Below are positions 10,773-53,057 of a stretch of 64,000 nucleotides of DNA, in pieces. Within the stretch, counting starts at the first letter, position 1; the number at the start of each line of letters is the position of its first letter. The stretch comes from an uncultured bacterium. GTDB taxonomy: Bacteria; Cyanobacteriota; Vampirovibrionia; Gastranaerophilales; Gastranaerophilaceae. The position numbers were made by a program, and so were the translations under genes. The stretch is taken from positions 21 through 64,020 of the forward strand of contig CASFGU010000023.1 of the NCBI GenBank assembly GCA_949294395.1, read 5' to 3'. Under the pieces are notes generated by a model, which was given only the letters and a program-made list of their open reading frames with translations, was not told the origin of the DNA and did not search any database.

Positions 10773-10783
10773 CTAGAGGTTCC

Positions 10784-23787: not shown

Positions 23788-26700
23788 TTATTTTTTATTG
23801 TCGTTTGTTTTGATTACTCTGCCGTCAGTAGAGGTTACGGTACCTTTGATGTTCATATTCTTGTCTGCTGTATTCCAGATTGCAACGTTGCCTTTGTTTT
23901 GAACTTTACCGGTTTCAGTTATGTTAAGCTCGGTACCGTGGTTTGTGATGTAGAGCTTGTTGGCATTGTTAACAATTGTTCCGCTTATATTCATTGCTCC
24001 GTTGTCGTTCTGGATTACTGCGTTGCCTGTTTCGTTCTGGATAGCACCGGAGATGTCAGTTCCGCCTTCGCCTGTGCTCCATACTTTCAGGATGCCGTTG
24101 CCATCAATTGTACCGCTGATGTTAAGTTCGTCACCTCTGCTTGTAACATTCAACTTGCCGTTGTTGTTAGTAACAGTTCCGTTGATGTTCATATCGCCGG
24201 TCATATTTGTAAGGATTGCGTTGCCGTTGTTGGTTACCGAACCGTCGATTGTTAATCCGTCCTCACCGGTATTCAGCATTGTCATAGAACCTTCGTTGTC
24301 GATTTCAGCATTTTTACCGACATTAATTCCGCCTTTGCTAGATACGGTCAATTTATTTTCCTTACCGGTATATTTACCGTTGATATTGAGGTTTCCTTTG
24401 TTGTTTGTAATTGTTGTTGTACCTGTTGATTCGATTTCACCGTCAATTGCAGTTCCTTCAGTACCGTTGTTGAGGAGTGTTAACGAACCATCGTTTTTGA
24501 TACGGTTTGTATCAGCTAAGTTCAACTTGGTGCCGCTATTTTGTAATCTCAGGTTGTTAGTGTTTTCAATGTCACCTGTAACATTAAGTGCACCTTTATC
24601 GTTTCTTACCAGGACATCGCCGGAGTTGTTTACGGTTCCTGCAAGGTCTGTGCCTTCAGAACCGGAGTTCCATACGTTCAATGTTTCGCTGTTGTTAAGT
24701 TTTGCTGATTCTGAAATATTTAACTTTGTACCCTGGTTAGTGATGCTTGTTTTAACATCAACCTTTTCGTTGGCTTTTTCGGTGTTAATAGTTCCGTTGA
24801 TATTCATTGCGCCGGCTTTGTTTGTAATTATTGCAGTGCCGTTGTTATCAATTTGACCGTTAACAGTTAAGCCGTTAGTACCTTTGTTCTGCATTGAAAG
24901 GCTGTTTGTGTTACCGATAACGCCTTCTTTGCCTACAGTCAGACCGTTGCCGGCTGTAATAGTTGCTTTACCGTTGTTAGCGATAAGTCCGTTAACTTTA
25001 ACAGCGCCTTTCTGGTTGTTGACAATCATACTTGCATTTCTATCGGTATCAGAGTTTGTAATTGTACCGTTTAATGCAATTTCACCGTTACCTGTATTTG
25101 CAATGTTTAATTGTCCGTTATTTGTTATAGAACCGTCGTTTGTAAGTCCGTTTTTAGCAGTAATTGTAGTTTTATTGTTGTTTTTGATGTCTGCACTCTG
25201 ATTGATTTTCAAGCTGCCGTTCTGGTTAGAGATTAAGAGTTCTCCATCATTTTCGGTAGTACCATCAAACTGCATCCCGCCGGCACCTGTGTTGTAAATT
25301 GTTACATTGCCGCCTTTTTCAAAGTTTTCGCCGCCGTTAACAAGTTTGTTTGTTTTGCCGAATTGCATTGCGTTACCTTTATTGGTAAGTCTTAATTCAT
25401 TTTCGCCGGTATAGATTTCGGCATCAACATACATATTGCCTTTATCGTTCTGGATTACAGCATTGCCGTTGTTAACGAGGGTGCCGAGAACTTCAGTACC
25501 TTCACTGCCTGTGTTCCATACTTTTAATGAGTCAGCGTTGTTTAATTCAGCGTCAGAAGCAATTTTTAACTGTTCACCTTTGTTTGTAATGCTTACTCTG
25601 CCTGACTGGTTGTTAACATTTCCGGAAATGATGAAGTCGCCTTTAGTGTTTGTAATAACTGTATTGCCTTCAGCGTTAACGAGTTCACCATTGAAAGCCA
25701 ATCCGTCAGCCCCTGTGTTTTGTATACCGAGATAACCTGTGTTGGTAAGTTCGGAGTCTTCTGCAATATTCATTGCGCTTCCGTTGTTGATGAGGTTCAA
25801 GGTATCAACGTTAGCTACTTTACCGTTGATATTCATTTCGCCGTTGTAGTTCTGTATAACGGCTTTTGAATTGTTTTCAACAGTACCGTTAACATCAATA
25901 CCGTTAGCGCCTTTGTTCCACATTCTCAAGCTGCCGTCGTTTTTAACCTTAGAGCCTTCTGCAAGAGTTAAGCCTGTACCGTTGCTGATAACATCAAGGT
26001 CAGCCTTATCAGAGTTATTAATTGTTCCTGAGATGTTGAATTCTCCTTTATCGTTCTGAATTACGGCTGAACCGTTGTTAGCGATTGTACCTGTAAGGTT
26101 TGTACCGGCAACGCCAGTGTTCCAAACTTTTAAGGTGCTATCGTTTGTTAACGTACCGCTGAGATTTAAAGCGCCTTTTCTGTTAGTAATATTTATAGAG
26201 CCGTTTTTGCTTGCAATTTTGCCGCCGATGTTTGCATTGTTGCCGTTATTTGTAATTACAACATTATCGCCGGAATTAATAGTACCGTCTACGTTCAAAT
26301 TGCCGTCGCCGGAGTTAACCATTGAAAGAGCCCCGTCGTTTGTAATCTTAGCGGATGAAGTAACATTAAGAGCTTCACCGTAGTTAGATGCGCTGATTTT
26401 ACCGCTGCTTGTTACATTGCCGCTAATTTCAAGGTCGCCGTTGTGGTTAACCAGCAGTGTGTCGCCGTTTGTTTCAACTGTGCCTGCAATTTTTAAACCA
26501 TCAGCACCTTTGTTGCCAATATTAGTTTTTGCGTTTTCCGCAAAGTTTTTAATTGTACCGTTAATTTCAGTGCCGCCTTTATCAGCATAAGAAGTGATAA
26601 CGATTTTACCATCTTTTGCAGCAAGTGTATTAGCATTTGAAACTGATGTATTTACAAGGTTGTTGAATAAAACGTTTGCCTGATTATTTGTATTAATAAC

Positions 26701-27294
26701 ATCATTATTTTTAATACCTGTAATCATACCGGCATTGTCACCGATTACAACATTTCTGCCTGAAAGCGAGATGCCTTCTCTTGTAATAACTTTACCGTTG
26801 ATAGTTACATCTGCATTGTTCTGGTCTAATCTATAGTAACCGAGATCCGGTGAATTTTTGTATTTTTCGTAATCAGACTGTGTCGGTGTTAATACAGAAA
26901 GTGAGCCGACATTAATTACACCGGAAGCCCCGACAACCATACCTTTCGGTGAAATGAAGATTGCCTGCCCGTTGTAGAATTTGCCGTCTCTCATTGAATT
27001 AACTAGACCGTTGATGTTTACCTGATTATCAACTAAGTTAACAAATTTTGATACGTTTTCTGTACCGTATTTAAAAATCAAGTTGGCTATGTCGCCTTCT
27101 GATAAGTTGAAGTTGTCATACTGTCTAAAGCCCACACCGTTGTGCTGGTCTGTAGGATTAATGTTGTAAATCCCGTTGTTTCCTGTGACTCCGGTAATAT
27201 CGGTAGCGTTTGCCTGAAGTGACTGTGTAGCCAGGAAGCAGGCTGCTAATAATGATACTGCCAATCTGCCTTTGTTAAGTTTTCTCTGTTTCAT
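23788..27294 (-). CDS. TpsA-like exoprotein (filamentous-haemagglutinin N-terminal domain plus beta-helical repeats), no adjacent TpsB
   Basis: The start at 27294 has AGGAAAG upstream; the track start is 27339. Signal peptide. TPS-domain motifs NGIYNINP...FRQYDNFNLSEGDIANL...FVNLVDNQVNINGLVN...AIFISPKGMVVGASGVINVGSLSVLTP. About 12 copies of a ~66-aa super-repeat follow. Confidence 0.85.
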   Translation of the reverse strand: MKQRKLNKGRLAVSLLAACFLATQSLQANATDITGVTGNNGIYNINPTDQHNGVGFRQYDNFNLSEGDIANLIFKYGTENVSKFVNLVDNQVNINGLVNSMRDGKFYNGQAIFISPKGMVVGASGVINVGSLSVLTPTQSDYEKYKNSPDLGYYRLDQNNADVTINGKVITREGISLSGRNVVIGDNAGMITGIKNNDVINTNNQANVLFNNLVNTSVSNANTLAAKDGKIVITSYADKGGTEINGTIKNFAENAKTNIGNKGADGLKIAGTVETNGDTLLVNHNGDLEISGNVTSSGKISASNYGEALNVTSSAKITNDGALSMVNSGDGNLNVDGTINSGDNVVITNNGNNANIGGKIASKNGSINITNRKGALNLSGTLTNDSTLKVWNTGVAGTNLTGTIANNGSAVIQNDKGEFNISGTINNSDKADLDVISNGTGLTLAEGSKVKNDGSLRMWNKGANGIDVNGTVENNSKAVIQNYNGEMNINGKVANVDTLNLINNGSAMNIAEDSELTNTGYLGIQNTGADGLAFNGELVNAEGNTVITNTKGDFIISGNVNNQSGRVSITNKGEQLKIASDAELNNADSLKVWNTGSEGTEVLGTLVNNGNAVIQNDKGNMYVDAEIYTGENELRLTNKGNAMQFGKTNKLVNGGENFEKGGNVTIYNTGAGGMQFDGTTENDGELLISNQNGSLKINQSADIKNNNKTTITAKNGLTNDGSITNNGQLNIANTGNGEIALNGTITNSDTDRNASMIVNNQKGAVKVNGLIANNGKATITAGNGLTVGKEGVIGNTNSLSMQNKGTNGLTVNGQIDNNGTAIITNKAGAMNINGTINTEKANEKVDVKTSITNQGTKLNISESAKLNNSETLNVWNSGSEGTDLAGTVNNSGDVLVRNDKGALNVTGDIENTNNLRLQNSGTKLNLADTNRIKNDGSLTLLNNGTEGTAIDGEIESTGTTTITNNKGNLNINGKYTGKENKLTVSSKGGINVGKNAEIDNEGSMTMLNTGEDGLTIDGSVTNNGNAILTNMTGDMNINGTVTNNNGKLNVTSRGDELNISGTIDGNGILKVWSTGEGGTDISGAIQNETGNAVIQNDNGAMNISGTIVNNANKLYITNHGTELNITETGKVQNKGNVAIWNTADKNMNIKGTVTSTDGRVIKTNDNKK

Positions 27295-27466
27295 AATGTT
27301 ATCTTTCCTCATAAATTGCCCCATATACATATTAAACATCTAAACATTTAAAAAATTGCTATAATATCATAAAATATTACAAAATATTAAGTAAACTTTT
27401 GTTTAATATTCTGCAAAAAAGAATACAACCATTAGTTATGGCTGTATTCATGAGAAATTTTATTTG

Positions 27467-29982: not shown

Positions 29983-31008
29983 ATGAAAAAGGAGCTTACA
30001 ATGACAGAACTAAATATTTTTAAAAACGCTGAAAATGCAGCAAAACTTTTAAAGCTAAAAACGGCAAGCGGTAGTGTTTCTCAGCCTGATATAAAAAAAA
30101 TTTCTAAATTAAAGCAATATGTAATAAGTAAGTATGATAAAATTTCACGCGAAAATCTTCCGCTTACGCAAGAGTTAATAAAGAATATTTCTGATATTGA
30201 AACTTCTGTTTACAAATATGAAACCCTTAAAAAATCGGATTTTGCGGAGGCTGCTGCCGACGAAAAATCAAATATTTTAACATCAATTGATCGAATTTTA
30301 AATTACAGTAAAAATCTTGCGGAAGAACCGGTGCTGCTTGACGGCGCTGTCAGCAACGCCAAATACGTATGGCGCGCTTCTAAAGGAAGTTGTGCTACAT
30401 GTCAGGCACTGGACGGAACAGAGTATGTTTTGAAAGAAGATATTCCGCCCAAACCCCATCCGAATTGCAAATGTACGGTTGAGATGATAAAGGATGAGAA
30501 TACACAGCCTTGTGACTGCCAGAGGCTGTATGAAAAAATTGACGAAATTTCCTCCTCAGTCGAAACTGTAATTCCCGCACTTGAAGATATAAAAAATTCT
30601 GCCGCCGAACTTATGCTTGTTGCTGCAAATATGCCGGCAGCCTCTCTCGGGTACAGTATTCTTGATGAAATAAATACAGCACAGGAGGCGTATCATGATT
30701 TTCAGCGGAATAAGTCGGAGATGATTGCATTCCGCGGATATGACAAGTATTACCACGCAAAAGCCAACTGCGAAGCATCACGCCGCGGATTAAGCGGGGA
30801 GGCTGTTGCTTATCTTGCAAGTATTGGAAAAGAAATTATTGATATTTATACAAAAACAAAATCTAAAAGATTAACCCTCATTGAGGCTGTTAAAGATTCA
30901 CTTGAGGATTTGCAGGCAGATTTTTACGGAATTAGCCGGAAGAGTAATAATGGAAGCTGTGGTATTAATGTGGAAAATATCGGAACTATTATTAATAAAT
31001 CTGAATAA
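29983..31008 (+). CDS. fusion protein: helical N-terminus, phage MuF-like motif, serum-amyloid-A-like C-terminal domain
   Basis: YVWRASKGSCATCQALDGTEYVLKEDIPPKPHPNCKC resembles the MuF/SPP1-gp7 C-terminal motif. AYHDF...YDKYYHAKANCEASRRGLSGEAVAYLASIGKEII...KDSLEDLQADFYG aligns by eye with vertebrate SAA (AYSDM...[34 protein letters not shown]...EDSLADQAANEWG). An alternative start at 30001 has AAGGAG 6 nt upstream. Confidence 0.6.
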   Translation: MKKELTMTELNIFKNAENAAKLLKLKTASGSVSQPDIKKISKLKQYVISKYDKISRENLPLTQELIKNISDIETSVYKYETLKKSDFAEAAADEKSNILTSIDRILNYSKNLAEEPVLLDGAVSNAKYVWRASKGSCATCQALDGTEYVLKEDIPPKPHPNCKCTVEMIKDENTQPCDCQRLYEKIDEISSSVETVIPALEDIKNSAAELMLVAANMPAASLGYSILDEINTAQEAYHDFQRNKSEMIAFRGYDKYYHAKANCEASRRGLSGEAVAYLASIGKEIIDIYTKTKSKRLTLIEAVKDSLEDLQADFYGISRKSNNGSCGINVENIGTIINKSE

Positions 31009-35082: not shown

Positions 35083-35113
35083 GAGGAGCCGTTTTTATTC
35101 AAAACGGCTCCTT
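35083..35113. terminator. bidirectional rho-independent terminator
   Basis: GAGGAGCCGTTTT-tattc-AAAACGGCTCCT between convergent ybaK and the giant gene. Confidence 0.75.
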
Positions 35114-35118: not shown

Positions 35119-38100
35119 TTATAACTGACTGGTGTAGCTGTCTTTCATTGAATTTGCCCTGCGTAAATTCAGATAAAGAATTTTGTTTGCAGTAGCCTTG
35201 TCAAGGTTGATGAATTTGACACCGGCAAGTTCATCTTTTGTCACGCGGACAACTTCAACTTCGACATCTATTACCATATCTTCGTAAAGAATTTTTACTC
35301 TTGCGGTTTCACCGACTTTGAGTTTCCGTTCTTTATTATCAATCAGAGCGCCTGTCTTTGAAATATCGTAGATAGGTACATCCGATTTTATGTTTTGTCC
35401 TTTTGTCGGGAATCTCATAGAAACACGTTTTGTCGCTTTATATGTTTCTTTGTCAATTTCCTTAAACTCAGGAGTTGTTGTATTATGCTGAATCTTCATA
35501 TCTTTATAAGTCAATCTTAAGAAACTGTTTTCGTTGCCGAATAAATTGACTACTTCATAAGGATTGTAATTAACAACCGGCGCCTGAGTTTTAAGAACAA
35601 CAAGATTGCCCATATCAAGTCCGAATGAACCGGTCTTTTGAGTGTACAACTGTACTGTAGAATCAACGAGTCTGCGGAAATCATTATCAACTACAGCCAG
35701 CCATCTGTAAACATAGTCGCTGCCGTAACTTCCTTCTCCGCCGCGGTTCCCGTTGCGGAATTCTGCGTAGTTATTTATGATTGCATCCCTTATGGTAAGA
35801 TTTAAGTCTTTTGTATCAACGTAAGCATCGTTTGTATAAATTTTATTGATATTCATACCTCTGTTGTAACCGGTATCTGCACTTCCTGGAGCAGTATTAA
35901 CAGAAATTGCAACATCGTCGGCAAGATATGCGTTTCCGTCCGGTATCTGAAATTCATTATTGAAAATTTCAATTGTTTCAAATTTAGTTTTTTCATTATA
36001 AGTTCTTGTTGAGGTATCGCCTCCGTTTACGTCTGCAACAAAGTCTTTATTTACACCCTCAATATCAAATGAGAGTTTAGCACCTTCTCCTACTGTGTTG
36101 AAACCTGTTGCATAGTGTCTTTCTCCGTCAAGTTCATAAGAACCGTTCTCTTTCGGATCAAATCCGTCAGGGTGATGAACTGTACTTACATCTGATGCTG
36201 CAGCATCATAGGCGTTAGCGTAGATGTTATCAGCCATTAATGACACATCAGCTTTCTGGAATGTCTGTCCGTTTACATCTTCATATTCTCCCTGACCGTT
36301 ATTTGCGCCTTTTACGTAAGCGTTGTAGATTTTGAGAGTAGAATTTGCATCCGCGCCGCCGTCAAGGTCAAGAACCTCGATTGCAATTGTCTGCGGAACA
36401 ACACTGTCCTCCCCGCTGCCGAGTTTTATCAAATCGTGCGGATAAAGCAGGTCGTCCATCGGATCTTCAAAGCTTGTGGTCTTTCCTATATTATAGATTG
36501 TTAAATCTTTTGCCTTGCTTAGCAGGTGCAGGTGATTCCCTGATGTAATCTCGTTAATTGTTGCTTCCGAGCCCAGAGTAAAATCAATAGAACCGCGTTT
36601 TGATATAAGCTGCCAGATGTTTGTAGGGTTATCAGATTTAACATTTTCTAGCTTAATATCATTTTCAGCTTCAAAGCTTACCCACGAATCCGGATTTACA
36701 TCAGTCCTCTGTGTGTATGTTAATGCCTTTTCACCGCCTATTTCATTGCTGGAAATAACAGAGATATTCTGCCCTTCAATATTTGCGCCGCCGTCTGTTG
36801 CAGCATTGGTAATTGAATAGCCTCTGAAATACTCTTCATCATCAGGTGTCGGGTTCTGATCAGGCTGTCTCCAGTCAGCGGCTGTAAGGATTACATTGCC
36901 GTCGGCTTTGATATGGTTAACTTTCATATCAGAAGCTTTGCTTCTCAGGTTGACTAATCTGACACCGTCGGGATTAGCGTCGCTGTTTATTGCGTTTGCG
37001 GTAACAGAGCCGCCTATGTTAATATTAAGTGTTTCTGTGTAGTCTCTAGTCGGCGCGTTAACACTGAAACCAGGGTTTGCATCATCAGTTGCCCCGATAT
37101 TTCCGTCGATAACGTTCATAATAAGGTTAGAAGAAGCCGCGAGCATTGTCTTATCAGCGCTGTTGTTCCCTCCGTAATTTAGAACATCCCCGCCTGTCTG
37201 GTTTATTGTAATGCTTCCGCCAGACTGAACATTATTATCTGTATTGTCGTGACCTATTACTATATCAGCCCCGCTGCTTGTAAGCGTTATATTGCTTGCA
37301 TTTGTTGTTGCAACTTTGCCGTCAATATCCATACCGCCGGCGCCTGTGTTTTTAACTTCAAGTTCGCCGTTGTCGTTTTGGACAGTTCCGGTTTCTGTTA
37401 CCTTCAAGGCTGCGTTGGTGTTTTCAACTTTTGTAGCACCGCTCTTGTTGTTGATTAACCCGGCAATTTCCATACCGCCGTCACCGCTGTTTGTAACTGT
37501 AGTCTGTCCGTTGTTATTTACAATCTGACCGCCATTTTCAACAGTCAATTTGCCTGCAGTGTTGGAAACTGTTGTTGTGCCATTGTTGTTGTTAACAAGA
37601 CCTGTAGAGGTTACTGTCATTCCATCCTGACTGTTATTTTTTAATACGTTAGCACCGTTATCATTATGTACAGTACCTGAAATTGTAGCACTGCCGTTGT
37701 TGTTTGTAAGGTTATTGGTGCCGTTTTTGTTTGTTACAAGTCCGCTTTCGGCAATTAATAAGCCTCCATCGCCATTATTTGTGATGTCTGTTGTTCCTTT
37801 AGCATTTTCAACGGTACCTTCAATATTAAGTTTAGCCTTTTCATTAGTAATCTTAATATCACCTTCTGTAGCCGCAACTTTACCGGTTGAGGCAATATCA
37901 AGTCCTGAGGCACTCTGGGCTGTAACGTTTACATTTCCTTTGCCGGAATGTTTAATCAATCCTGCAATAGAGAATTTACCGGCATTTTCAGTATTTTTAA
38001 CATTAATGGTGCCGCTTGTGCCGTCTGCAACAACCTGTCCTTTTTCAGTTACTGTCAAATCTCCGGCATTATTTGTAATGTTAAGTTCTCCGCCGTTTGT

Positions 38101-41100
38101 GTTGGATACAATACCGGTATCTTGAATTGTAATACCGCCTTCTGCATCATTTGTAAGGTTTGAGGTGCCTTCTGTGTGCATTAAGCCTTCAACAACAATA
38201 CCGCCTGCAGTTTCGTTTTTAATTGTTGTATTGCCGAGCGCGTCAATTGTTGCAGTCTGCACACCTTTTTCATCAAGTTTATTCAGAATATTTACACCGT
38301 TTTGCGATGTAATATTCAATAAACCTGTGCCGTCATCCTCTTTTTTGCCTTTTGCATTTTCAATCAATCCTTTGACATCAACAGTGCCGTTTGAAGTGAT
38401 TGTTGTGTTTGCAAAATCATGTCCCTGATTAATAACCTTGTTGCTTTCCTGTTGAATGGTTCCGTTAATTGTGTAACTGCCATCCATTCTGTTGTTTGCA
38501 AGGTTGTTTACAACAAGTTTGTTATCAGTATTATTTGTAATTGTAATATTACTGTAACCGTCTGTGTATCTGACTTCGCCTTCGCCGGAAACTGTACCGT
38601 TAAAGGTTACATTTCCGCCTTCTGTGGAAGTGTTAAACACTACGATTTCTTTTTTACCATCGCCGTCTGCGTCAGTGTAGAGAATTTTGATATTGTTGTT
38701 TTCGCTCAGGTAATCAGAAACATCAGCTCCCTGAAGATCAATAACTTCTGTGTCATTGCCGGCAGAGTCTTTGACGAAATGAGTTAACATATCATCTGTA
38801 ATTGTAATGTTTCTATCTCCGTAACCTGCCTGAACTTTTCCGTTGTTGACAATAGAATTTGCATTTACGGTTACATTTTTGCCAGCAAGTATCCGGTCGC
38901 CGTCATTCAGTGTAAGCTCTCCTGCCGGAACGTCAAATGTCACATTCCCCTGCGCCGCAACAATATCTTTTGAGTCCGCGTTGATAATGTTTTTGAATGT
39001 AATATCTCCGCTTTCATTCAACACATTGAAACCTCCGGCATTGTTTGTTATCACGCCGTTAAATAGTATGTTTGAAGTTATTGCGTTTGAGATAAGCGAA
39101 TTTCTGCTGTCATAGTAGTTGTTGATTATAATATTATCTTTAACCCTGTCATTTCCATATTCTTTTACAAGGCTAACATTATCGTTGACTTTTTCTCCGG
39201 TTACGGCAAGATTATCAAGGTTTTCGCCGTTTACAATAAATCCTGTATTTCCGTAGCTGAGCGCAATATTATTGAAGATTAAATCATAATCGGAATAATT
39301 TTCAATAAATACACTTGAGCCGAATATTTTAAACAGTCCGTTTCCTGTAATATCTTCCCTCAAAATTCCGTTCAACTCGATTTTTGAAGGTTCAGCCGCA
39401 ATGTTGTTAAATTTTATTGAATTGTTGTCTGTTGTAACATCCGGAAGCGGGTTTTGAGTAAGATATTCAATCTGTGCTTCAAGAGATGTTATTGAATTAT
39501 CTAAATCTGAAACATTTTGGGAAATTGTTTCATTAATTTTTGTGAGATCTTCAAAAGCTGTGTTGATACTGTCATAACTTGATTGAAGCTGCGCTTTATA
39601 TGTTTCATCTTCACTATCAAATACCAGTTTGCCGTCATATACAGATGTTTCAACACTGCCGATAGTTGTTGTTGTCATCTTAGCACTTTCGGTATCGATT
39701 GCATTGTTCAACAGCGTAATCTGAGCATCTGTTAGTCCGGATTCATTTTGTAAATAGTTATTTATTTCTTCATCAGTAAGGTTTGCATCGGTTAATTTGC
39801 TGTATACTTCATCAAATTTTTCCTGAGAAATCTGATTTTCTCCATCCCCGACAATTGCACTTTGAATATTATTTTTGGATTGTGCTGCAACTTCAGCTGA
39901 TGTGATTGTATCTGTATTGTTATTTATGTCATCAAGGATACCCTGAAGCTGTTCAAGCTGCTGTTCGTACAAAGCAAGCTGTTCTTTATTTGTTTCTTCA
40001 GTTGTGTTAAGTCTGTTTTTCTGTTCTGTAAGATAATCTATCTGATTTTGAATTTCATTTTTTGCATCCTCTGTTAACTCTGAACCGTCGATAGTCCCGC
40101 CTTCAAGAATTTCATAGTCCTGATTAGCTATAAATCCTTCCAGTTTTTCTTGAACAACATTGCCGTTTTCGTCGATCAGCATGTATTTGTTATAGCTTTC
40201 TCCGGCTGTAACCTCGCCATCAAGAGCAAGAGAGTTATTAATAGCCTGATTAATATGTGAACTGCTGCTTGATTTTGTAATAGGGATACCAAACAAAAGT
40301 CTGCTTATTTTTTTAGAATTAATTTGAGATGTTAGCGTGTTGTTTCCATTGGAGTAGTTTACTAAAACATCTCTGCCTGAGGATATTTTAGCGCCGGTTC
40401 TTATGTTGAGTGCATTGTTTGTTGTGTAGTTAAGATGTCCGTCAGCTTCTCCTGTTGCAACAGCTGCTTCAATGAATAAATCAGCTTTTTGGACAAGAGT
40501 ATTAATTGAATTTTTCATAAAGTCAATCTGAACTGCTTCCCCGCCGTTAATCTGTCCTTCAAGATTAATAGTATTATTTATCGTTAAATCCAGATAGGAT
40601 TTTGACATTGGATCTCTGAAACCAACGTGATTAGCTTTTGTATAAGTTTCCGAGCTTAATTCATTTGAAGAATCCTGTGAGATTGATACATAATTTCCGG
40701 AAAGAACGGTATCTGCTCCGAGAATATCAAGAGTATTGTTGTTAGTTACAGTAAGGTTTGATGTAGCTCTATTCCTGTTTGTAAAGCCGGAATGTTCTGT
40801 CTTAACAAACTGGTGGAAAGTACTGTCCGTATTTTGTTTTACATCAAGTTTGTTTTTAGCCTGCAGTTTTGAATTCTGAATTTTAATTTTGTTATTCTGG
40901 GTTATTGTATTGTTGATAGTAGCACCTGCATCTGTTGCAAAACCACCGGCATCGTCATCATACTGAATAAGCCCAAGTGAGCCGAAATCTACATCAGATT
41001 CTATATTTATATCATTCGCCTCGATTGTAGAGTTAGAAATATTGATAGCTTCTGTGTTTTCGTTATATTTAATATCGTTGCTCAATGTTCCGCCGTTAAT

Positions 41101-44100
41101 TGTTGTAAAGCCGGCTGAATTGGAAGTTTTTTCCATAGCAATCTTGTTGCTGCTGTCAACTTTGAGATTTACATTTCCGTTTTCTGATTTTATTTCAGCA
41201 TTATTTACGGATATGTTATTTGATGTGTTAATGTTGTTTTTAGCGCTGCCTTTCGCAATTGCGGCGAGGGCTGCAGAATTTTCACTCAAATAAGTTTCTG
41301 CCTGGTTCAATGCGTTTGATGTAAGGCCGAAATTGTTTTTAACCCCTACTTTGCCGGTAGTATTAATATCTGAACTGCCTGTTGTTTCGGTTAAAATATT
41401 ATATATTCCGGCAGTAACCAGTCCTCCGCTTTTCGTCTTCATTGTAGAATATGCGTTTCTGTTTACGTTTGAGGTAATCGCAACACTGTCTGCTGTAATA
41501 TCTCCGTTAAGATTTACAGATGTATTTGAATTAACTTTTGCGTTTGATTCATTAACAGAACCACTCACAATTGATAGATTTGCACTAACCATTTCATTAT
41601 GTGCATTTGATGTATCGTTCATTTCAATAGTAATATCTTTAGCGATTTCACTTCCGCCGGCGAGTGTTATAGATGAAGTTCCGCCGACTGTTGAGTTTAA
41701 GCTAAGTGTATTTACTGAAACAGCACCTATTGAACTGCTTGTTGAACCGGTTTTTGCGGTTTTATTCAGGTTTGAAGCGAGTTTCATATTGTTTGCTTTA
41801 ATGTTATTTGCATTAACATTAACGTTGGAATCGGCATTTACTGTTGCATTCTGGGTTGTTACAGAGGCGAGGATAAATCCTAAATCTGCCGCTTTTGAGA
41901 ATACTTCCGCTGTTATTGCTCCGGCAAGTGTATTATCAGCTGCATTTACGCCTGATAACACATTTACGTTGTCTGCTTTTGAAATCGTAAGGTTAGGATT
42001 ATTAATAGCAGCTGCGAACGTAGCGGAAGCCTCAGAATTTTGCTCGCTGCCGCTGACGCCGATTGCGGTTAATGATCCGAGATACATTGTAGTACCTGTA
42101 GTTATACCGTTTGTAGCAGCTACTATATTTAAGTCGTTATTTAATGCAATATCGCCTGAGGCGTCTATTATCGCGTTGGTTACGGCATTGGAAACAGCAG
42201 AATTTACAAGAATTCCGACTGAAATACCTGATGCCTGATATGCCTGCATTTCTGAATTTAAAGAGCTTGTATTATTAGCTTTTACGTTCAAATTGTCAGC
42301 ATCAATATCAACTGCACCTGTAACAAGAGCTTTTGTATTGTTAGTTGTTTTTACATCCGCAACAACAGCATTCACGCTTGCTCCGGAAATTCCGGCACCG
42401 AATGCTTTTGCGGAAATATTATCTGTTGATTCAGCAATTACATCAATATTACCTGCCTGAACTTTCCCGCCGTTGATTTGAGCGGTAGTCTGCGCATTGT
42501 TTCTGAAATATGCAACATTTCCGCCGACGGACACGCCGCTTAAAGATGCCTGATTTGCACTTGTATTAGCATTAATATTATTTGAAGCTTTAACTGAAAC
42601 TTTATTGCTTCCGGCGTCAACATTACCGCCCAGTGAAGCGTTAGTTTTATAGTTCATATTTGTAACAAGTACGTTTGCAGCAAGCGCGCCTAATCCGATT
42701 GCGGCATTCTCATTTGATTTCTTAAATTGAAGTGTATTTGAAGCATTAACGTCAACCGAACCGTTTGAAGTAACATTTGCATTGACATTTGCGGAAGTTC
42801 CGCCTTTTGAACCTGTTCCTGCAAGTTCAACCGAACCTGAATTATAGCCCGCACTTACTTTATTCCCGTCTTTATCAACAATTTGAAGATTGTTTAATAC
42901 GGAATCGTTTCCGCTGACTGTGGAATTTGCCGTTTCTTGAGTTGTTGTAACAGCATCAGAGTTATCAGCAACAAGATAACTATTTGTATCACTATCCGAG
43001 AATTTAGAACCGATTGAGGTAACTGAAACAGAACCCGCCATGCCGGACATTCCGGCAGCTGCGGAAGCAGTTAATACATCAATATTTAAATCCGATACGG
43101 CATCAACGTCCAGAGAACCGACGTTTACTGCACTATCAGAATTTACTTCCGCAAGTACGGCATTGTTTATGATATTTACATTTGAGGAACCTGCAGCAGC
43201 TCCTGTAGCTCCGACAGCAGCAACACCTGCTCTTGCTGTTAAATCAAAATCTTCATAAGCGTTAACTTTTAAAGCTCCGTTTGTCGAGATTTCTTTCCCG
43301 CTGTTATTTATCTGTGCTTTAACTTCATTTTCAATAACATTTACGTTCACTGATAATCCGCCGGCAAAACCGCCGCCTGCCGCTGTATAGTTATCAGAAG
43401 TAACTGCAGTTTTATTCTGCGCATCGAGAGTAATGGATGAACTTTTTGAAACTGCAGAGTTATTGATTTCTGCTGTGTTTTTATTTGTCAGAACATTCAC
43501 AATAGAACCTGTACCGGCTGCAACGGCTCCGCCTGACACATTAGCATAAACAGCCTTAACCGTTGTATCCTGATCGGTTGTAATATTAACCGCACCATTA
43601 CTTGATACTGTTGAATTTGAAACTCCTGCATAGAGTTCATTTTTAACAGTGTTAACAAGTGCGGACACATTTACCCCTGCAAGCCCTGAAATTGCAACTG
43701 AGAATGCATTGAAATCAAGTTTCTGATCAGATTTTGCATTGACTGTAAGTGAAGTTATATCATTAAGAATCGCATTGGCAATATAAGCCTTTGTTCTGTC
43801 CTGAATAATATTCGTAACCCCGTTAGCGTTCACACCAACAGCAAGACCGCCAAAATTCGCACCTGCAAGCCCGCCTGTCATTTTATCAATCTGCTGGGCA
43901 TTAACCTTCCAAGTTCCGCCGTTAACAGTTACCCCGTCAACGTATGAAAGAATATCATTATCCATAACGTTTGCGATAACCGCTAACCCGATAGCCGCAC
44001 CAATACCGGCAATTCCGGCAGATGCAAGATTACTGCCCATTGTGATGGAAGATTCTGCTCTGACGTTTGAATTGCCCGCTACATTAATATTCTTATCCTG

Positions 44101-47100
44101 TGTTCCCGTAATTGCCGCGGTCAAATCGTTGTTAACCACGTTTGAAATCACATTAGCGCCGATTTGTCCGCCGACACCTGCAACTCCTGCAGCAGCAATT
44201 AAATCAAACACATTAAATGTATTTTTGGCATTTACGTCGAGTGAGTTTGCAGTAATATCAGAGTTTTCAATTTTTGCTTCCGTATTTGCAGAATTCTGGT
44301 TTGTAATAGCCAGACCCTGAACATTTGCGCCTTCTCCAGCAACACCTACTGAGGCACTCATTGAGGCTATATTATTTGTACTGGAAGCTTCCACATCAAC
44401 ATCTCCGGCACGTTTATCCGCACTGCCGATTGTTGAATTTGAGATTTTAGCGCTTGTTGTATTAACTGTGCTGTTTTCATTAACATATCCTGATACAACA
44501 GCCGTTGCAGACGCTGCAACTCCGCCCATGATTCCGTTAAGAGTATTTGTATCATGAGCCTTGACAGATACATTACCGTTTTTAACAGTTGTATTATCAA
44601 GTAAAGCGTTTGTATCGCCCCTTACGACATTTACAAGTGCTGTTCCTGAAACTGCCGCAGTACCGGAGGCAGCAACGCTTCCGACAGCGTCATATGTCAC
44701 TGTATCCGAGGTGGCAAGAATATTTAAATTACTTGAATTTTCTATAACAGAATCTTTAACACTTGCATTAACGTCATTAATAATAGTATTAACAACAGCA
44801 GAGCCGCCGACTGCAGCAGTTCCGGCTGCAGTTACGTTAAGTGCCGAAATTATAGGGGTATAACCTGAAATATCTATTGAAGTCGAATTTCCAGGGTCTA
44901 AACCCAATAAAGTTGTATAAAGTCCTGCTTTATCCCCATATTTAGTTTTGTTGTAATCCTGAGAAGCTTTTACATCTATATTATGTGTCACATCAAGGAT
45001 AGCGTTATCAACAGATGCGTTTACGTGTGAATTTATAACATTCACAATACCGAGCCCTGCAACATCTGCTGTACCTGCAGCAGACACGAGAGCCGTTATT
45101 GCGCCGACAGATTCTTCCGAGCGTGCGTTTACTTCAAGACTGTTTGCTTTTATGTTTGTTTTGTTTGTGGATGTTTCTTTGCCAACATTTGCGTTTACGT
45201 TATTGTCAAATGTATTAACAAAAGCAACTCCGCCGACAGATGCTGTGCCTGAACCTGAAACCGCAAGGTTGTCGGACTGAGAATCAACTGTTTCTGACGC
45301 AATAACTTTTACGTCACCTGCTTTTGAATTTTCGCTTATTCCGCTGATTTGTACATTATCACCTATTGAAGCTGATGTTGTATTCACAACCGTATTAACA
45401 TTAGCGGAACCGTTAACAGCAACATTACCTGCGCCGCCTCCGATTACCATAATAGTTCTTATAACTTCTTTATTTTCAGCTTTTACATTAACGTTTCCAC
45501 CTGTTTTAATAACAGCATTATCCCCGATAGACGCCGAAGTTGTACCTGTCACTACATTTACAAATGCAGAACCGCCTACAGCTGCCTTTCCGCCTGCAGT
45601 CAAACTTCCGACAATTGCGTTTATGATTACAAAGTCGTCTGCCAGAACATCAACTGCACTTGCAATAATTTCTGTATTATTGCCGATTGAAGCAGTCACA
45701 TTATTATTTATAACCTTTGTGATAATAGAACCGCTGACACCTGCTGTTCCGCCGCCAACAAGGTCATAAGACATCTGCCAGCCGTCAAGAGATGAGACAT
45801 TATTATCATCAATCAATTTTGCAATATCAGCAATATCTGTTATAATATAGTTTCCGTTATCGTCTTTTTTGCCGCCTGATGCGTTTTGTGCAGTTGCGCT
45901 TACTGTAACAGCCCCATTTTCTGAATCTACAATTGTGCCGTCATTAATTTTTGCGCCTACTGTTTTATTAAGTACATCAACCGCAATAGAGCCGCCTATA
46001 CCAACTTTAGAACTTCCTGCAAGAGTTCCGCCTCTTGATACCATATCGGAATTATCGTAAGCGATTACATCAAGTCCGTTTGAAGTTATTCTTCCGCCGG
46101 CTTCTGCAAGTGTGCTGTTAGTAAGTACGTTTGCCGCGACATTTGCCGCTGCCGCGAATTTACCCGTAGATATAGTGGCCGCTGCCGGAATTATATTAAG
46201 ATTTTCATAAGACTGAGCTTTTGCACTCACCTTACCGCCGGCAGTAACTGTAGAATTAACTTTTGATTGAGTGTCGTTTGTATAAACATTTGTAATAATA
46301 TTCCCGCCGAGAGCATTGCCCTGACTGCGTGCAAGTCCTGCAACGGCAGTAATTCCCTGAATATCGTTTTTGTAGTTTGCAATATTTGATACGGCACCGG
46401 TTGAATTAATTGAGCCGCCTGTAATGTATGAGTAAATATCACTGTTCAGGACGTTAACAATGGCGTTTGCCATAGCGGAACTTGCACCGCTTGTGTTAAG
46501 CCCCATATTTACGGCTAAGAATTTCAGAACCTCAATCTGGTCTGCGTTGACCGATACAGATGCAGAATTTGCGATTGTACTGTCTGCGATTTCAGCTTTC
46601 ACCGCGTTATTAATAACGTTCACAACTGTTCCGAGCCCGACTCCCACTCCGCTTGTTGAAGAGGAGAATTGTGCTGAACCTGCAATGTTGGAATTTCTTA
46701 TTTCAGAATAAGCAGATGTATTTATATCTCCTGCGGCATTAATTGTTGAATTGTTTATTGCTGCAGTAATTGTGTTTCCTATAACATCGACCCCTATAGC
46801 GCCGTCAAATGAATACGACGACGAACCTCCGGCTATAACAGAACCTGCTGCGCCGAAAGATATTATATCATCAGTTTTTCCGCCGCGGTTGTTTGCTTTT
46901 ACATTTACATTTGATGCGTTAGAAATCGCTGTATTATTTGTGATTTCTGCGGTTGTGGATTTATCGAGAATATTGATATTACCCGCAATTCCGGCGCCTA
47001 TATTTGTATTTGAGCCTTTGGTCAAAGTAAGTCCGCCGGCACCTTTATAGCCTTTTGAGTAATTGTTTGCGATTACGTTAACATCAGCATTTCCGCTTTT

Positions 47101-50100
47101 CCCTTCCGCATTTTTAATTGTTGCATTTGATACGGAAGCTTTTACATCGTTATCAATCACTGTTGCATTGAATGAACCGCCGACAGCAGCTTTTGTGCCG
47201 CTCTGTGAATTTGATGCGGCTCCTACGCCAAGCGCAACATCTATATTATTGTTATCTTCATTAGCTTCAACATTTAATTTTTTATCGCCGTCTGAGGTGA
47301 AGTTTACGGTTGTACCGTTCAAAAGAGCATGAGTTGAACCGCCGCGCGATGAAACATTGACTGCCGCACCGGCTCCAAGATTTCCGGCTTTTGAAAGTCC
47401 TGTTGCAATATTCAGATTCTGGTTATTTTGAGAGGCTTTTACATCAAGATTTTTACCTACATTCACGGTTCCGTTTCCAATAGAAGCCTCAACTGCAGTG
47501 TCATTTGATTCAACGGTTACAACACCTGCTGCTGCAGCCGAGAAATTATTTGAAGCAGTAGATGCGTTTGCTGTTGTTGAAAGCGTAGTAGCTCCGGCAA
47601 GAGCCTGTCCCTGTGAGGTTGTGCTTGTTACTCCGTCTTTTATATCAGTCTGATTCTGATCATTTGTACTGTTTAATGAATCTTTTACATTTTCATCTTT
47701 TAAATTATCAGTAACAGAACTTCCTGACGCATTTGCAACTGCATCGTCCTTAGAAGATGTCTTACCTTTAATTTTATTAACAATAGAAGAAATTTTGTCC
47801 TGCCATCCGCCAAAACCATTGGTAGATTGATTATCTCCTGTCTGTTGTGATTTATCGACAGTTACACCGCCGGCAAAAGCGCCTGCAAATCCTATATTCA
47901 TAGCCTGTGATGAGGCTGCGGCAGTAACTGAAGCATTCTCAGCAGCCGTAACAGTTGCGCCGTCAAGAACTTTTGCGCTCACATTTTTATTAACATTATT
48001 AACGATTACAGTAGCACCTACAGCACCGCCCGAGGACGCCTGAGAAGTTTGAGAACCGCCTGTTTCACTCTGTTTTGAAAGTGAACCTCCAATATTTAAA
48101 ACGGAAGTCTTATCCGTAGCTGTTCTTTCATCATTCATTAAGATTGAATTATTGGTTAATCCTGATTTATCTTTAACTGTCGCAATCTTACCTTCGCCAG
48201 CTTTTACATTGACATTTTTAGCGCTGACTTTTGCATTGCTTCCAATTTGTGAAGATGTTTTTCCAGAAATATCCTGTACCAGAACAGAACCAGCAAGCGC
48301 AAATTTGTCTGATTTAGAACCTGTTGCAATAGCGGAAAGATAGGCAGCTTCATTTGCCGAATATAAACCGACCTCGCCGTTTACAGCATTAATAACTGCT
48401 GAGTTTCCGATAAGAGCCTCTGCATTATTTGTAAATTCATTAATAAGAACGGAGCCTCCCAAGCCGACTTTACCGCCGGATGCACTACCTCTGAAAAGTT
48501 TGGTTATATCACCGGCTCCGTTATAATTTACAACGGAATTTACGGAATTAAGGATAACACTGCCGTTATTTGAGGTAACAGCAGCACCATCAGAAATTTT
48601 TGCCATTGTGTTATTGGCAATTGAGTTATAAACCACAGCACCTGAAGCCCCGACGCTTTCACCGGCAGCTGAGGCAGATGCATGGTTATTAAAGAGCAGG
48701 TCATAATCAAATGTTTTGTCATCAGGTGTCGCAAGTTCAAATTCAGCATCTGACAAATCTATACCTGAATAAGAGTTTCCATCCGTATTTGAACCGTTAA
48801 ATCTTGTAAAATCCCAGCTTACGTCAGAACCTGTCGAAAGAGCAAAGCCGTCACTGACAATCTCTTTATCTCCAATTTTGACATTAAGTCTAAGGCTTGC
48901 CAAATCCAGCGGGAGTTCGGTCGTAGCATTAACTTTTACATCCTGCCCTGCAGTAACGTTCGCATTCTGCCCGATTACTGCATTGGTGTTATTTGTCTGG
49001 GAATTCACAACAACTGCAACCCCCGGAGCAAATTTTGCACCGTCTGTTGCTTCCGATTTTGCACTGTTTTTGGTGTAATCAACCGTATTTGCATTTACAG
49101 TAACATTGTTACCTGCATTGACCTCGGCATCATTTCCGATTTCTGCAGTTGTATTGATTATGCTGTTATTCAAATTAACAACACCGGACATTTCAACTGC
49201 TGATGAGGACGGAGCAGATGTAGGATTATCTTTATTTGCGCTGCTGCTGCTTAAACCGCCCAGCATTCCTTTTATCTTACCGATTACTCCGTTTGATTGT
49301 GCGTCAGTGGTACCTTCACTCTTAGTTGCATCGGTATCTTTTGACGCATCATATTTACTGCCGGCTGTTGACAATTTAGTATCTGATATATGGAGATTTT
49401 GAGCGCTCACATTTACGCTTTCAGTTGTGTTAACTGTTCCATTTACAGACGCTTTTGTATTTACCCTGTCATTTTTTATTAAAAGGGAAATTCCTGCGGT
49501 TGAACCGGCTTTTTCTCCTTGATCCTGATATTTAATATTATTGTCAATTTTTATATTATTTTGGGTATTATTTACCGCACCCGCATTCAAATTTTTTGCA
49601 GCTACAGTCGAATCTTTATCAATATTAACAAGCGTATCTGATTTTGAGGTGTGATTTACTGCCATTAATTCATAAGAATTTGCATTCTGACCTTTTAGTG
49701 TAGAGATAAGCTTATTAGAGATTTTGATATTGGAAATATTCTGAGAAATTGCGGCAGTTGTGACATCTCCGCCGGCATTTATATCAGAATTTGTTATATT
49801 TATTTTTGATAAGGTTTCGTTCCCGAGAGCATATACATTCGCTTTGCTGTCCGATAAATTGTTTTTTGAAATCTCAGTATCCGCAACCGCATTTGTTGCA
49901 ATCGTTATATCTCCGGAGGAATTAATTTCCGAATTAATTATGTCAATAACTGCATGTGCTCTGGCGCCCGTAAAATCATCATAAGCGCCATTTTCTGACA
50001 TATTGAAATACTCGTTGAAATTTATAGCTGCATCAAGCATGGCACCTTTTACATTCCAGATTGAAGTATCCAGCTTGTCGGAAGCCTGCGCAAGCATTTC

Positions 50101-51191: not shown

Positions 51192-53057
51192 ATGGATTTG
51201 AAAAAGATAGTATTAGTTGCAATATGCTGTTCCTGCATTCATAATGCGTCGTATGCTGCCGGCGAAATTCCAGCAGGGGTAATGGATGCTGCAGGAAGCG
51301 CGCAGAATCTGCATGTTCATGACATGGACAGGCTTAAAGATCTTCAAAGACGCGAGGAACAGGAGCAGGACTGGCAGGATTTGAAAAGACGCCAGAAAGA
51401 ACAACAGGAAAATCCTGATAAAGTAAAATCAAAAAAAGAAAAAAAGAAAGATGTTATAAAGGCACGTGCCGAAGAATATGCTACAAAAGGCGTTTATATT
51501 GATAAAATCAGAGTTGCGCCGAGCCAGATTTTAACACAGGAAGAAATCGAAAATATTATAAGTGATTATCAGGGTGAAAACCTGACTTTTGATAAAGTAA
51601 AAGAGATTATTAACCGTATAAATACTCTATACCTTGAGAAGGGTTTTGTGACTGCCAAGGCATTTGTCCCTGAACAGGATATTGTAGACGGTTCTTTGTA
51701 TATTGACCTTTTTGAAGGCAAAGTCGGCGAGGTGTCTGTTGTTGATAATAAATGGACAAAAGAATCTTATATTAAGAAAAGAATTTCAGCAAAGCCTTAC
51801 AAACTTTTTGATATAGTTGAACTTGAGCAGGATGTTCTGAACTTTAATAAATATACCCCGGGAATAGAATTGAGCGCGAACTTAAAACCCGGTGAAAAAA
51901 GGATGGGAACAACTGATATAGAGCTTGCAGCCAGAGAAAAACTCCCGTTCCATACAAGTTTTATTTTTGATAACGCAGGCAGATCCACAATCGGTAATCT
52001 TCGCGGCGGTGTTGCACTGACACATGACAGTTTGTTCGGGTACCGTGATAAACTGACTTTAGGTGCTTATGTTAGCAGCCACTCAAATACTCCGTTTGCG
52101 GACTATAATATTCCGGTTAACAAAAAAGACGGGCGTGTCGGCTTCTCTTTCTCCTCAAGCTATGCACATATTGCTCAGGGTGATTACAAAATGTTCAACA
52201 TCCGCAGCCGCTCTTATGTGTATTCGCTCTATTTCAATCAGCCGTTGATTAGAAAACCATACTTTGAATTATCGAGTTTCAGTTCAGTTGACTACAAGCA
52301 GGCGACTACATCTTTTGACGGCTATGATTTATACACTGATAAAATTACAAGTGCCAGAACCGGTTTTAATATGCGTTACGATACCAAACGCGGTATCTGG
52401 TATTTAAACCAGTATGTGTCTTATGCAATGCCGATTTTCGATGATAATTCAAATTACGTAAAACTTGAAGGCGGAATTATCAGACTGCACGATTTCGGTC
52501 ATGGAATTGTAGGTCAGTTTAGAGGTGCATATCAGGCTATTCCTAAAAAAGATGTAGTTCCATATATTGATCAGTTTCAAGCAGGCGGTCTTTCGTCGGT
52601 CAGAGGCTACTCGGAAGGTCTTTTGATAGGCAGAAGCGGCTACCTGTTAAGCGGTGAACTTTTGTTCCCGATTGCTCCTTCTGCGATTAAATCAAAAGAC
52701 AAGAAGAAAGAAACCCCGTTTCTCGGAAAATATGTTAAAGGGGTTGCGTTTGTAGACCATGCCATGGTATTCCCGTTTAAGGGCGAAGGTCCGGGTGCTT
52801 CCGGTATTGATTCAAACGATGTACTGCTCGGCATAGGGCTGGGGTTGAGAGTTACACTGCCAAAAGACCTTACCGCAAGACTTTACTGGGGCTTCCCTAT
52901 GATTAGAAACTCCCACGAAGCTGTCCAGCATGCCGGAAGATTTCATTTTGATATAGTCTTAACTCCTGATTATGACGCATTGTTAAAGCTCAGACATCCT
53001 AAGGATGATAATAAAGAAAAGGTCAAAAAAGAGCCGGCTAAGATTAAGTCGTTGTAG
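51192..53057 (+). CDS. TpsB transporter (ShlB/FhaC/HecB family, POTRA plus 16-strand barrel)
   Basis: Signal peptide. POTRA-like IDKIRVAPSQILTQEEIENIISDYQGENLTFDKVKEIINRINTLYLEKGFVTAKAFVPEQDIVDGSLYIDLFEGKVGEV. Barrel motifs QAGGLSSVRGY and a C-terminal aromatic-rich strand. Confidence 0.9.
   Translation: MDLKKIVLVAICCSCIHNASYAAGEIPAGVMDAAGSAQNLHVHDMDRLKDLQRREEQEQDWQDLKRRQKEQQENPDKVKSKKEKKKDVIKARAEEYATKGVYIDKIRVAPSQILTQEEIENIISDYQGENLTFDKVKEIINRINTLYLEKGFVTAKAFVPEQDIVDGSLYIDLFEGKVGEVSVVDNKWTKESYIKKRISAKPYKLFDIVELEQDVLNFNKYTPGIELSANLKPGEKRMGTTDIELAAREKLPFHTSFIFDNAGRSTIGNLRGGVALTHDSLFGYRDKLTLGAYVSSHSNTPFADYNIPVNKKDGRVGFSFSSSYAHIAQGDYKMFNIRSRSYVYSLYFNQPLIRKPYFELSSFSSVDYKQATTSFDGYDLYTDKITSARTGFNMRYDTKRGIWYLNQYVSYAMPIFDDNSNYVKLEGGIIRLHDFGHGIVGQFRGAYQAIPKKDVVPYIDQFQAGGLSSVRGYSEGLLIGRSGYLLSGELLFPIAPSAIKSKDKKKETPFLGKYVKGVAFVDHAMVFPFKGEGPGASGIDSNDVLLGIGLGLRVTLPKDLTARLYWGFPMIRNSHEAVQHAGRFHFDIVLTPDYDALLKLRHPKDDNKEKVKKEPAKIKSL

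Follow-up and report, generated by a model that had tools for sequence, protein, structure and literature searches.

Why should a protein that appears destined to leave the cell through Sec and an outer-membrane pore end in a sensor for a cytoplasmic messenger? This topological puzzle is raised by a giant gene within a stretch of 64,000 nucleotides (contig CASFGU010000023.1 of assembly GCA_949294395.1, positions 21 to 64,020 of the forward strand; referred to here as the window) from an uncultured gut bacterium of the Gastranaerophilales (Melainabacteria/Vampirovibrionia). The gene is a single unbroken open reading frame (ORF) of 5,295 codons plus stop, and its sequence predicts an exported filamentous adhesin of type Vb, the two-partner secretion (TPS) class. 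The product, which we call the giant exoprotein, is arranged from its N-terminus as a Sec signal peptide, a TPS domain of the LktA type, a cysteine-free shaft rich in N, G, S, T and A, a conserved C-terminal module and a terminal PilZ domain. Tentatively, and at somewhat below an even chance, we propose that the PilZ domain is a cell-proximal stopper or anchor under the control of cyclic di-GMP (c-di-GMP), which decides whether the adhesin is retained or released. The features of the gene, all on the minus strand, are as follows.

35119..51006 (minus): giant exoprotein gene; product of 5,295 aa without cysteine
50899..51006 (minus): Sec-type signal peptide, aa 1-36, MKKVKSFKRFVTKAFSVFLALSFIVQQSLLVPVIA, with SE following the cleavage point; boundary by inspection and hydropathy
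50407..50838 (minus): TPS-like secretion domain, aa 57-200, by NCBIfam NF012204; the FxxPxG motif is FVSPGG at 50620-50637
37210..50406 (minus): N/G/S/T/A-rich shaft, presumed beta-helix, by composition; without a Pfam match
39607-40389 (minus): Glu/Gln-rich, coiled-coil-like segment of the shaft, about aa 3540-3800
35452..37209 (minus): conserved C-terminal module, aa 4600-5185, by column conservation in distant orthologues
35122..35451 (minus): PilZ domain with C-terminal helix and tail, aa 5186-5295, by Pfam, AlphaFold2 (AF2), Foldseek and a profile search of the PDB
35413..35427 (minus): RxxxR motif, RVSMR, aa 5194-5198, with an invariant Lys just before it
35350..35367 (minus): DxSxxG motif, DISKTG, aa 5214-5219
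35173..35190 (minus): C-terminal helix motif ANKILY, aa 5273-5278; conservation specific to the clade
35084..35112 (minus): terminator-like hairpin and T-run, 7 nt past the stop of the giant gene and common to the convergent ybaK-like gene

The first-pass annotation had recognised canonical PilZ motifs in a peptide of about 105 residues encoded at 35122-35430, and this assignment stands. The interval encodes aa 5193-5295 of the continuous ORF, the extreme C-terminus of the protein, and RVSMR and DISKTG are both intact. The Pfam PilZ profile (PF07238) matches with 37.6 bits (E 3e-9, gathering cutoff 22.5); no other family was matched by the Pfam search of the giant exoprotein. The alignment spans profile positions 24-96 only, because the spacer between RxxxR and DxSxxG in this subclade is only 15 residues long. 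In relatives whose spacer is longer, the alignment begins at profile position 1-3, and the scores of the relatives range from 22.8 to 42.6 bits, some over positions 1-97. An AF2 model of the last 120 aa, calculated with an alignment of 11 sequences, contains six strands followed by a helix at residues 95-119, and it is from this model that the PilZ fold is taken. The mean predicted local distance difference test score (pLDDT) is 76.8; barrel and C-terminal helix reach 85-94, and the low confidence of the RxxxR arm is what an apo-PilZ would lead one to expect. When the model was compared with the PDB using Foldseek, the best 33 matches were all PilZ proteins (probability 1.0, template modelling score 0.5-0.68), mostly c-di-GMP complexes. 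The top matches were 4xrn, Alg44 (4rt0/4rt1), Lpg0364, MapZ, YcgR, PA4608, PP4397, MotI, BcsA, MrkH and PlzA. A profile search of PDB sequences also returned Lpg0364 (E 5e-4), aligned across both motifs. We infer, with some reserve, that the last 110 residues could be a functional, c-di-GMP-binding PilZ domain. The ANKILY helix that closes the model is likely a protein-protein contact surface.

At its other end, the giant exoprotein starts with a signal peptide that has a basic n-region, a hydrophobic core (aa 17-35) and the cleavage site VIA-SE, assigned by inspection and hydropathy; the ...QQS... leader recurs in homologues. The NCBIfam model NF012204, 'leukotoxin LktA family filamentous adhesin', follows with 145.7 bits (cutoff 60). 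As Pfam Haemagg_act gave no match in the giant exoprotein and NF012204 did, the TPS domain is of the LktA subtype, not the FhaB subtype. A search of the TPS domain against PDB sequences returned no match. The only hydrophobic segments of the protein are the signal peptide and Gly/Ala-rich repeats of the shaft. Two further genes of the window belong to the same system.

51192..53057 (plus): TpsB transporter gene, 621 aa, divergent from the giant gene; ShlB, POTRA_2 and Omp85 matches
23788..27339 (minus): PilZ-less paralogue, 1,183 aa, with an NF012204 TPS domain

The TpsB gene is separated from the giant gene by a spacer of 185 bp, and its product matches ShlB (80.6 bits), POTRA_2 (62.7 bits) and Omp85 (55.5 bits). 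With the signal peptide, the NF012204 match and the adjoining TpsB gene all present, the earlier description of the protein as a TPS exoprotein holds, as does its remark that the orphan paralogue lacks the PilZ domain. The TPS domain of the paralogue scores 153.8 bits with NF012204, no PilZ match was found in the protein, and its C-terminus falls within the shaft repeats. It is 41% identical to the giant exoprotein over the first ~255 aa, and its TPS domain is 49% identical to that of a mid-size PilZ-bearing TpsA-like protein.

A union as unexpected as this could be an artefact, a mis-assembly or a missed frameshift having joined a separate small PilZ gene to the giant ORF. Public gene calls lend the idea some colour, as they often list the PilZ end separately as a small protein, and the PilZ frames are short in a few of the loci that we collected. 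These loci come from a scan of one genome per species, in which 38 loci encode the C-terminal module. By title, 25 of them are Gastranaerophilales, Melainabacteria or Cyanobacteria metagenome-assembled genomes, 3 are Candidatus and 2 are Brachyspira (including 'Brachyspira sp. CAG:484'); the remainder are uncultured or unclassified bins, a few with discordant labels. In 23 of these 38, however, one of them a HiFi chromosome, no stop interrupts the PilZ frame for at least 3,700 aa upstream, which is as far as the fetched flank reaches, so that the frame is continuous here as well as in 23 assemblies obtained independently. Complete homologues of 4,864-6,412 aa, extending from the signal peptide through to PilZ, also emerged when a PilZ-only profile was searched exhaustively with HMMER. 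One of the small public calls can be followed in full. At locus L052 (4104-8402, plus strand; the same in L053-L055) the public calls retain just a C-terminal piece of 133 aa, under the name 'membrane PilZ domain protein Epm44 [Clostridium sp. CAG:967]', with spurious minus-strand ORFs elsewhere. The 133 residues lie within a continuous TpsA-like ORF of 1,432 aa, which has more than 260 residues of perfect (TD)n ahead of PilZ.

An independent small PilZ gene was rejected for similar reasons. The first homology search gave only proteins of 164-429 aa, but these are contig-end fragments or gene-caller splits. The candidate for a free-standing PilZ gene was that of P0005, a protein of 393 aa encoded midway along a 65-kb contig; it is instead the 3' remnant of a decayed giant gene, with a TTG start, homologous sequence upstream until a stop, and shaft-like sequence in another frame. 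An internal start that would yield a cytoplasmic C-terminal product was likewise discarded, since the start codon is not conserved, the Met of 'LMADNIY' being L, R, K, A or I elsewhere. We therefore regard the artefact as exceedingly improbable. Locus L001 (9872-11182; also L002-L004 and L043) retains the last ~390-436 codons, including PilZ, of an otherwise deleted giant gene, with TPR and GH77 genes upstream; the L001 remnant is identical in at least five samples.

The domain itself is under strong purifying selection. The ratio of nonsynonymous to synonymous substitution rates (dN/dS) over the last 110 codons, compared with six relatives, is 0.055-0.13, a rough estimate with dS near saturation. 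Relatives as distant as 39% identity still show little or no variation in K-R-x-x-x-R-F and D-I-S-x-x-G.

The first-pass annotation had proposed a survey of TpsA homologues for a C-terminal PilZ; the search made here started from PilZ, and its matches include TpsA-like proteins of 0.9-6.4 thousand aa. Clustered at 50% identity, the matches of the PilZ-only profile amount to 395 representatives at E <= 1e-3, of which 150 reach E <= 1e-10. Of 65 listed representatives of at least 800 aa, 45 start with a signal peptide and the others look N-terminally truncated; in nearly all of the listed proteins of this size the PilZ match ends no more than ~35 residues from the C-terminus. Two apparent giants with tandem PilZ among the top 150 matches, P0012 (19 stretches) and P0099 (8 stretches), were discarded as spurious: they have no Pfam PilZ match and are high-GC proteins with Ig-like or P-domain repeats. 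The mid-size members (0.9-2.5 thousand aa) consist of a signal peptide, the NF012204 domain (117-135 bits), a shaft, an acidic linker and PilZ. Their linker is an acidic, Pro-rich and disordered stretch of (TD)n or (SD)n type over 100-260 aa, the one perfect (TD)n run described above exceeding this range. At locus L045 (186-12937, plus strand), three tandem TpsA-like genes (1,664, 1,483 and 978 aa) each have PilZ at the C-terminus. The small members (150-350 aa) contain nothing but a signal peptide, a low-complexity linker and PilZ, with RxxxR and DxSxxG intact and the conserved tail LLYLSI.LEADNNML.TKLS. They are the following.

P0089, P0094, P0095, P0107, P0119, P0124, P0125, P0131-P0133, P0136, P0139, P0140, P0145, P0150; L049 975-1445: small signal-peptide-PilZ proteins

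In three samples, one such gene is flanked by nth and rpsO. In a set of 155 representatives, the arginines of RxxxR are conserved in 92% and 89%, and the D/N, S and G of the second motif in 84%, 92% and 97%, respectively. The helix motif ANK(I/L)LY (N 94%, Y 88% across the clade) is, with the ligand motifs, among the most conserved positions. A conserved gene convergent to the 3' end of the mid-size PilZ-TpsA genes was also observed (L052 8458-10326, L047 6197-7894 and L045 12973-15105, all on the minus strand). It encodes a coiled-coil protein of 565-710 aa with a Gly/Ala-rich hydrophobic centre, which gave no match in Pfam or NCBIfam, is not a TpsB and is absent from the window.

The module ahead of PilZ (aa 4600-5185) is the best-conserved part of the last 1,500 aa. 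Regional conservation was assessed by an analysis of MAFFT columns, averages over BLAST high-scoring segment pairs having proved uninformative. In distant orthologues the column identity is 0.43-0.66 over most of the last ~700 aa; in the shaft it is mostly 0.2-0.3 and reaches 0.4, and in the coiled-coil segment it is lower still. Conservation peaks just before PilZ, at aa 5046-5195 (YAEFRNGNR...VVDNDFRR...QLYT..TGSF...NPYEVVNL..ENSF.RLTYKD.KIQ). The PDB profile search of the C-terminal region matched nothing outside PilZ. In a comparison of the window at 35122-39500 with L007, dS is 0.26 for the shaft (codons 431-1500, counted from the end) and 1.1-1.4 for PilZ and the module ahead of it; this mosaic suggests recombination within the giant gene.

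What, then, could a PilZ domain do in this position? In TpsA proteins the N-terminus leads the way out, by Sec and then by TpsB, which leaves PilZ as the final portion and the one nearest the cell. Its strictly terminal position in proteins of very different length, the acidic disordered tethers and the conserved helix surface point to a role as an anchor or stopper, and the conservation of the binding residues suggests that c-di-GMP exerts control. At high c-di-GMP, PilZ would fold round the nucleotide at the cytoplasmic side of the inner membrane and resist unfolding; it may additionally dock via the conserved ANKILY helix. The adhesin would then remain tethered to the cell, with its shaft displayed through TpsB. 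At low c-di-GMP the labile apo-domain would be pulled through, and the protein would be released or its tail degraded. Such an arrangement would couple c-di-GMP to surface retention directly and within the adhesin itself. In physiological terms it would match the retention of LapA and CdrA under LapD/LapG, by which Pseudomonas arrives at this outcome indirectly, and the c-di-GMP-dependent holding of ExlA (PMC8472254). A fusion of proOmpA with ligand-stabilised DHFR (methotrexate) stalls SecYEG translocation in vitro, and a ligand-locked C-terminal domain could therefore in principle stall export. We consider it somewhat unlikely that this amounts to a natural ligand-gated translocation arrest, in which a c-di-GMP-locked PilZ is blocked at SecYEG and a trans-envelope tether is freed as the messenger falls. 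The tether would have its head outside, its acidic or disordered tail through both membranes and its sensor in the cytoplasm, a picture that we hold to be rather doubtful.

The first-pass annotation had suggested gating, retention or tethering by c-di-GMP. This would fit the conservation of the ligand residues, the purifying selection, the C-terminal placement, the acidic tethers and the presence of one REC-HD-GYP protein in a related genome. The latter, a response regulator (HHEKYDGSGYP), comes from a Gastranaerophilales genome that also carries the giant gene. It is encoded at L024 18534-19550 (plus strand), 7 kb past the PilZ end in the downstream direction, and among NCBIfam models it scores best (290.9 bits) with one for response-regulator c-di-GMP phosphodiesterases. 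HD-GYP genes have also been reported for Melainabacteria MEL.A1 (bioRxiv 10.1101/2021.11.05.467447). No c-di-GMP enzymes were found among the genes of the window.

Several observations weigh against the stopper. GGDEF and EAL domains were found neither in the window nor in 759 kb of related loci, using regular expressions and phmmer with approximate consensus queries, although this sample is one neighbourhood repeated across genomes and a weak basis for the negative; nor was a c-di-GMP riboswitch found in the window. The spacer between the two motifs in the giant exoprotein is 15 aa as compared to the usual ~20-26. About 10% of the members, giants included, have no RxxxR and/or DxSxxG and yet keep the domain and the helix; the giants P0096, P0097, P0126, P0137, P0142, P0143 and P0152, for example, have a degenerate PilZ at the C-terminus with the barrel and an ANK(I/L)xYxYM helix. 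An AF2 model of the last 429 aa is confident for PilZ alone, the module upstream having a pLDDT below 50. Arrest of a chain in SecYEG would carry the cost of a blocked translocon. The small signal-peptide-linker-PilZ proteins are hard to fit with arrest at Sec, and they suggest that the PilZ clade is really exported. The cost of a jammed translocon, the degenerate motifs and these small proteins are better accommodated by an exported plug or dock, or by sensing outside the cytoplasm. Taken together, the small proteins and the members that have lost one or both motifs suggest that the domain serves at its core to anchor or dock, possibly outside the cytoplasm and without a strict requirement for the ligand; control by c-di-GMP would be layered on that role.

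A plug or dock in the periplasm would work as follows. PilZ is exported, refolds in the periplasm and, as a bulky stopper or docking domain comparable to the CdrA hook or to the FhaB prodomain and its extreme C-terminus, holds the adhesin under TpsB or at the envelope until proteolysis; c-di-GMP plays no part after export, and the Arg, Asp and Ser residues bind another anionic envelope ligand or serve folding. Every complete member carries a Sec signal peptide, and no transmembrane segment is present to keep the tail cytoplasmic. The existence of the small signal-peptide-linker-PilZ proteins and the retention of the domain and the ANK(I/L)xY helix in members with degenerate motifs agree with such a role, and there are precedents, as the C-terminal parts of FhaB and CdrA remain periplasmic (PMC8472254). 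The residues that contact c-di-GMP are, however, among the most conserved of the clade (89-97%), and a purely structural plug needs none of them; the closest structures, moreover, are all c-di-GMP complexes. We also know of no ligand for an extracytoplasmic PilZ, and we regard this explanation as unlikely. The intact motifs and the systematic signal peptides could instead be reconciled if the ligand of this PilZ clade, c-di-GMP or a dinucleotide akin to it, were bound outside the cytoplasm, whether in the periplasm or in the lumen of the gut, and its binding altered the conformation or anchoring of the adhesin; canonical motifs coincide with signal peptides even on small proteins that have no other domain. 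Such sensing is very doubtful, since c-di-GMP is regarded as cytoplasmic only (PMC8472254), and neither an exporter nor any other evidence points to an extracytoplasmic pool of c-di-GMP.

The decision might also be taken before export, the cytoplasmic PilZ reporting c-di-GMP to an interacting protein, for instance SecA, a chaperone or a protease, so that export or degradation is decided and PilZ is afterwards merely exported or clipped. The intact motifs and the conserved helix surface suit this, c-di-GMP binds secretion ATPases in other systems, and the sensor would be placed at the sole part of the protein that is surely cytoplasmic when synthesis ends. On the other hand, most of the 5,295-aa chain has probably been exported before PilZ emerges, which makes the decision too late, and a conserved partner gene was not seen beside the PilZ-TpsA genes; licensing before export is quite improbable. 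Least of all these can we credit a delivered effector resembling CdiA-CT, in which the C-terminal module enters a target cell and PilZ sequesters or senses c-di-GMP there. The scaffold is like TpsA and CdiA, and the conserved segment ahead of PilZ could be a processing or entry module. The contact-dependent inhibition toxin model was nevertheless rejected for the absence of a VENN or pretoxin motif; no immunity-like gene lies downstream, the next gene being the convergent ybaK-like gene; the C-terminus is conserved across the order (38 loci) and not polymorphic; and the small signal-peptide-PilZ proteins do not fit. Delivery is thus highly improbable. The stopper under c-di-GMP control remains the answer that we favour, with the compartment in which PilZ acts and the outcome for the adhesin put forward conditionally.

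Elsewhere in the window, a Guanidine-I riboswitch (Rfam RF00442, 84.5 bits compared with 63) lies at 60796-60891 on the plus strand and overlaps the 5' end of the ORF at 60800-61264, whose start is therefore probably wrong. An ORF of 341 aa at 29983-31008 (plus strand) matches Serum amyloid A (PF00277) with 37.0 bits (cutoff 30.8), a domain unusual for a bacterium, and has a weak Phage_Mu_F match. A glycosyltransferase of family 6, the blood-group A/B transferase family, is encoded at 926-1744 (minus strand; 107 bits) and adjoins a TPR protein. The region 7535-12442 (minus strand) has a higher GC content (0.45); it includes a pilin-like protein that has an N-terminal methylation motif (7535-8128, minus strand), and three ORFs of 309-552 aa without a family match follow.

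The first-pass annotation had considered the architecture apparently undescribed, and our literature search agrees: among the publications searched for PilZ with two-partner secretion, filamentous hemagglutinin, adhesins, Melainabacteria or signal peptides and domain architectures, none describes a PilZ-TpsA fusion. Each component has known counterparts. CdrA/CdrB of Pseudomonas aeruginosa and LapA/LapD/LapG resemble the giant exoprotein in that a large adhesin has its C-terminus at the cell-proximal end (PMC8472254). CdrA is itself a TpsA protein, and retention of CdrA and LapA depends on c-di-GMP (as cited in PMC8472254), a control that is only proposed for the giant exoprotein. For CdrA and LapA the nucleotide is sensed by a separate inner-membrane protein, LapD, which controls the periplasmic protease LapG, whereas in the giant exoprotein the sensor domain would be built in. 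CdrA also has a disulfide hook and a TAAG cleavage site. A hook of this type is absent from the giant exoprotein, which contains no Cys, and the protein was rejected as a LapG substrate, since no TAAG-like string occurs in the last 2,600 aa, such strings being confined to the Ala/Gly-rich shaft (aa 1158-2649). In ExlA/ExlB of P. aeruginosa, the TPS substrate is kept in or at TpsB at high c-di-GMP and freed at low c-di-GMP (PMC8472254). ExlA has no PilZ, and in PMC8472254 the path by which cytoplasmic c-di-GMP acts on the outer membrane is described as indirect and unknown. For CdrA and ExlA alike, c-di-GMP controls retention indirectly (PMC8472254).

In FhaB/FhaC of Bordetella, a giant TpsA protein has a C-terminal region that stays in the envelope and controls maturation and release (also cited in PMC8472254). 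FhaB differs in its secretion domain, that of the giant exoprotein being of the LktA type (NF012204) and not Pfam Haemagg_act. The FhaB prodomain is a periplasmic region of ~1,200 aa without a nucleotide-binding domain. The LktA leukotoxin family of Fusobacterium necrophorum shares the family of the secretion domain, the giant repetitive protein and the TpsB-type partner; to our knowledge, no C-terminal PilZ has been described for LktA. The canonical PilZ receptors (Alg44, BcsA, YcgR, MapZ, PA4608, MotI/DgrA and Lpg0364) have the same fold and both motifs, but all of them reside in the cytoplasm, either as whole proteins or as domains of inner-membrane proteins, and none is the C-terminal domain of a protein exported by Sec and TPS. 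The linker of the mid-size members recalls the Gram-positive Sdr/Clf MSCRAMM adhesins, in which a repeat of (TD)n/(SD)n type spans the wall above the anchor, and the NCBIfam Sdr/Clf models match it; the Sdr/Clf proteins end in an LPXTG sortase anchor, whereas the PilZ-tailed proteins end in PilZ and their hosts are diderm. The TpsA adhesin, the PilZ receptor and the c-di-GMP-controlled retention of an adhesin are thus known kinds, and what is new is their direct fusion and the topological problem that comes with it.

The Gastranaerophilales are a little-studied gut lineage, sister to the photosynthetic cyanobacteria. The PilZ-tailed proteins are a large family that dominates the giant surface proteins of this order, and the architecture has been hidden because the PilZ end is often split off as a small 'PilZ protein' in public gene calls. 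c-di-GMP is a general bacterial switch between motile and attached life. The known routes from c-di-GMP to adhesins are indirect, by transcription or by the LapD/LapG relay, and the ExlA route is openly unknown. If either the translocation arrest or the extracytoplasmic reading were true, the mechanism itself would be new; an adhesin with its own PilZ would, if our proposal is true, be the most direct coupling of c-di-GMP to an adhesin yet seen.

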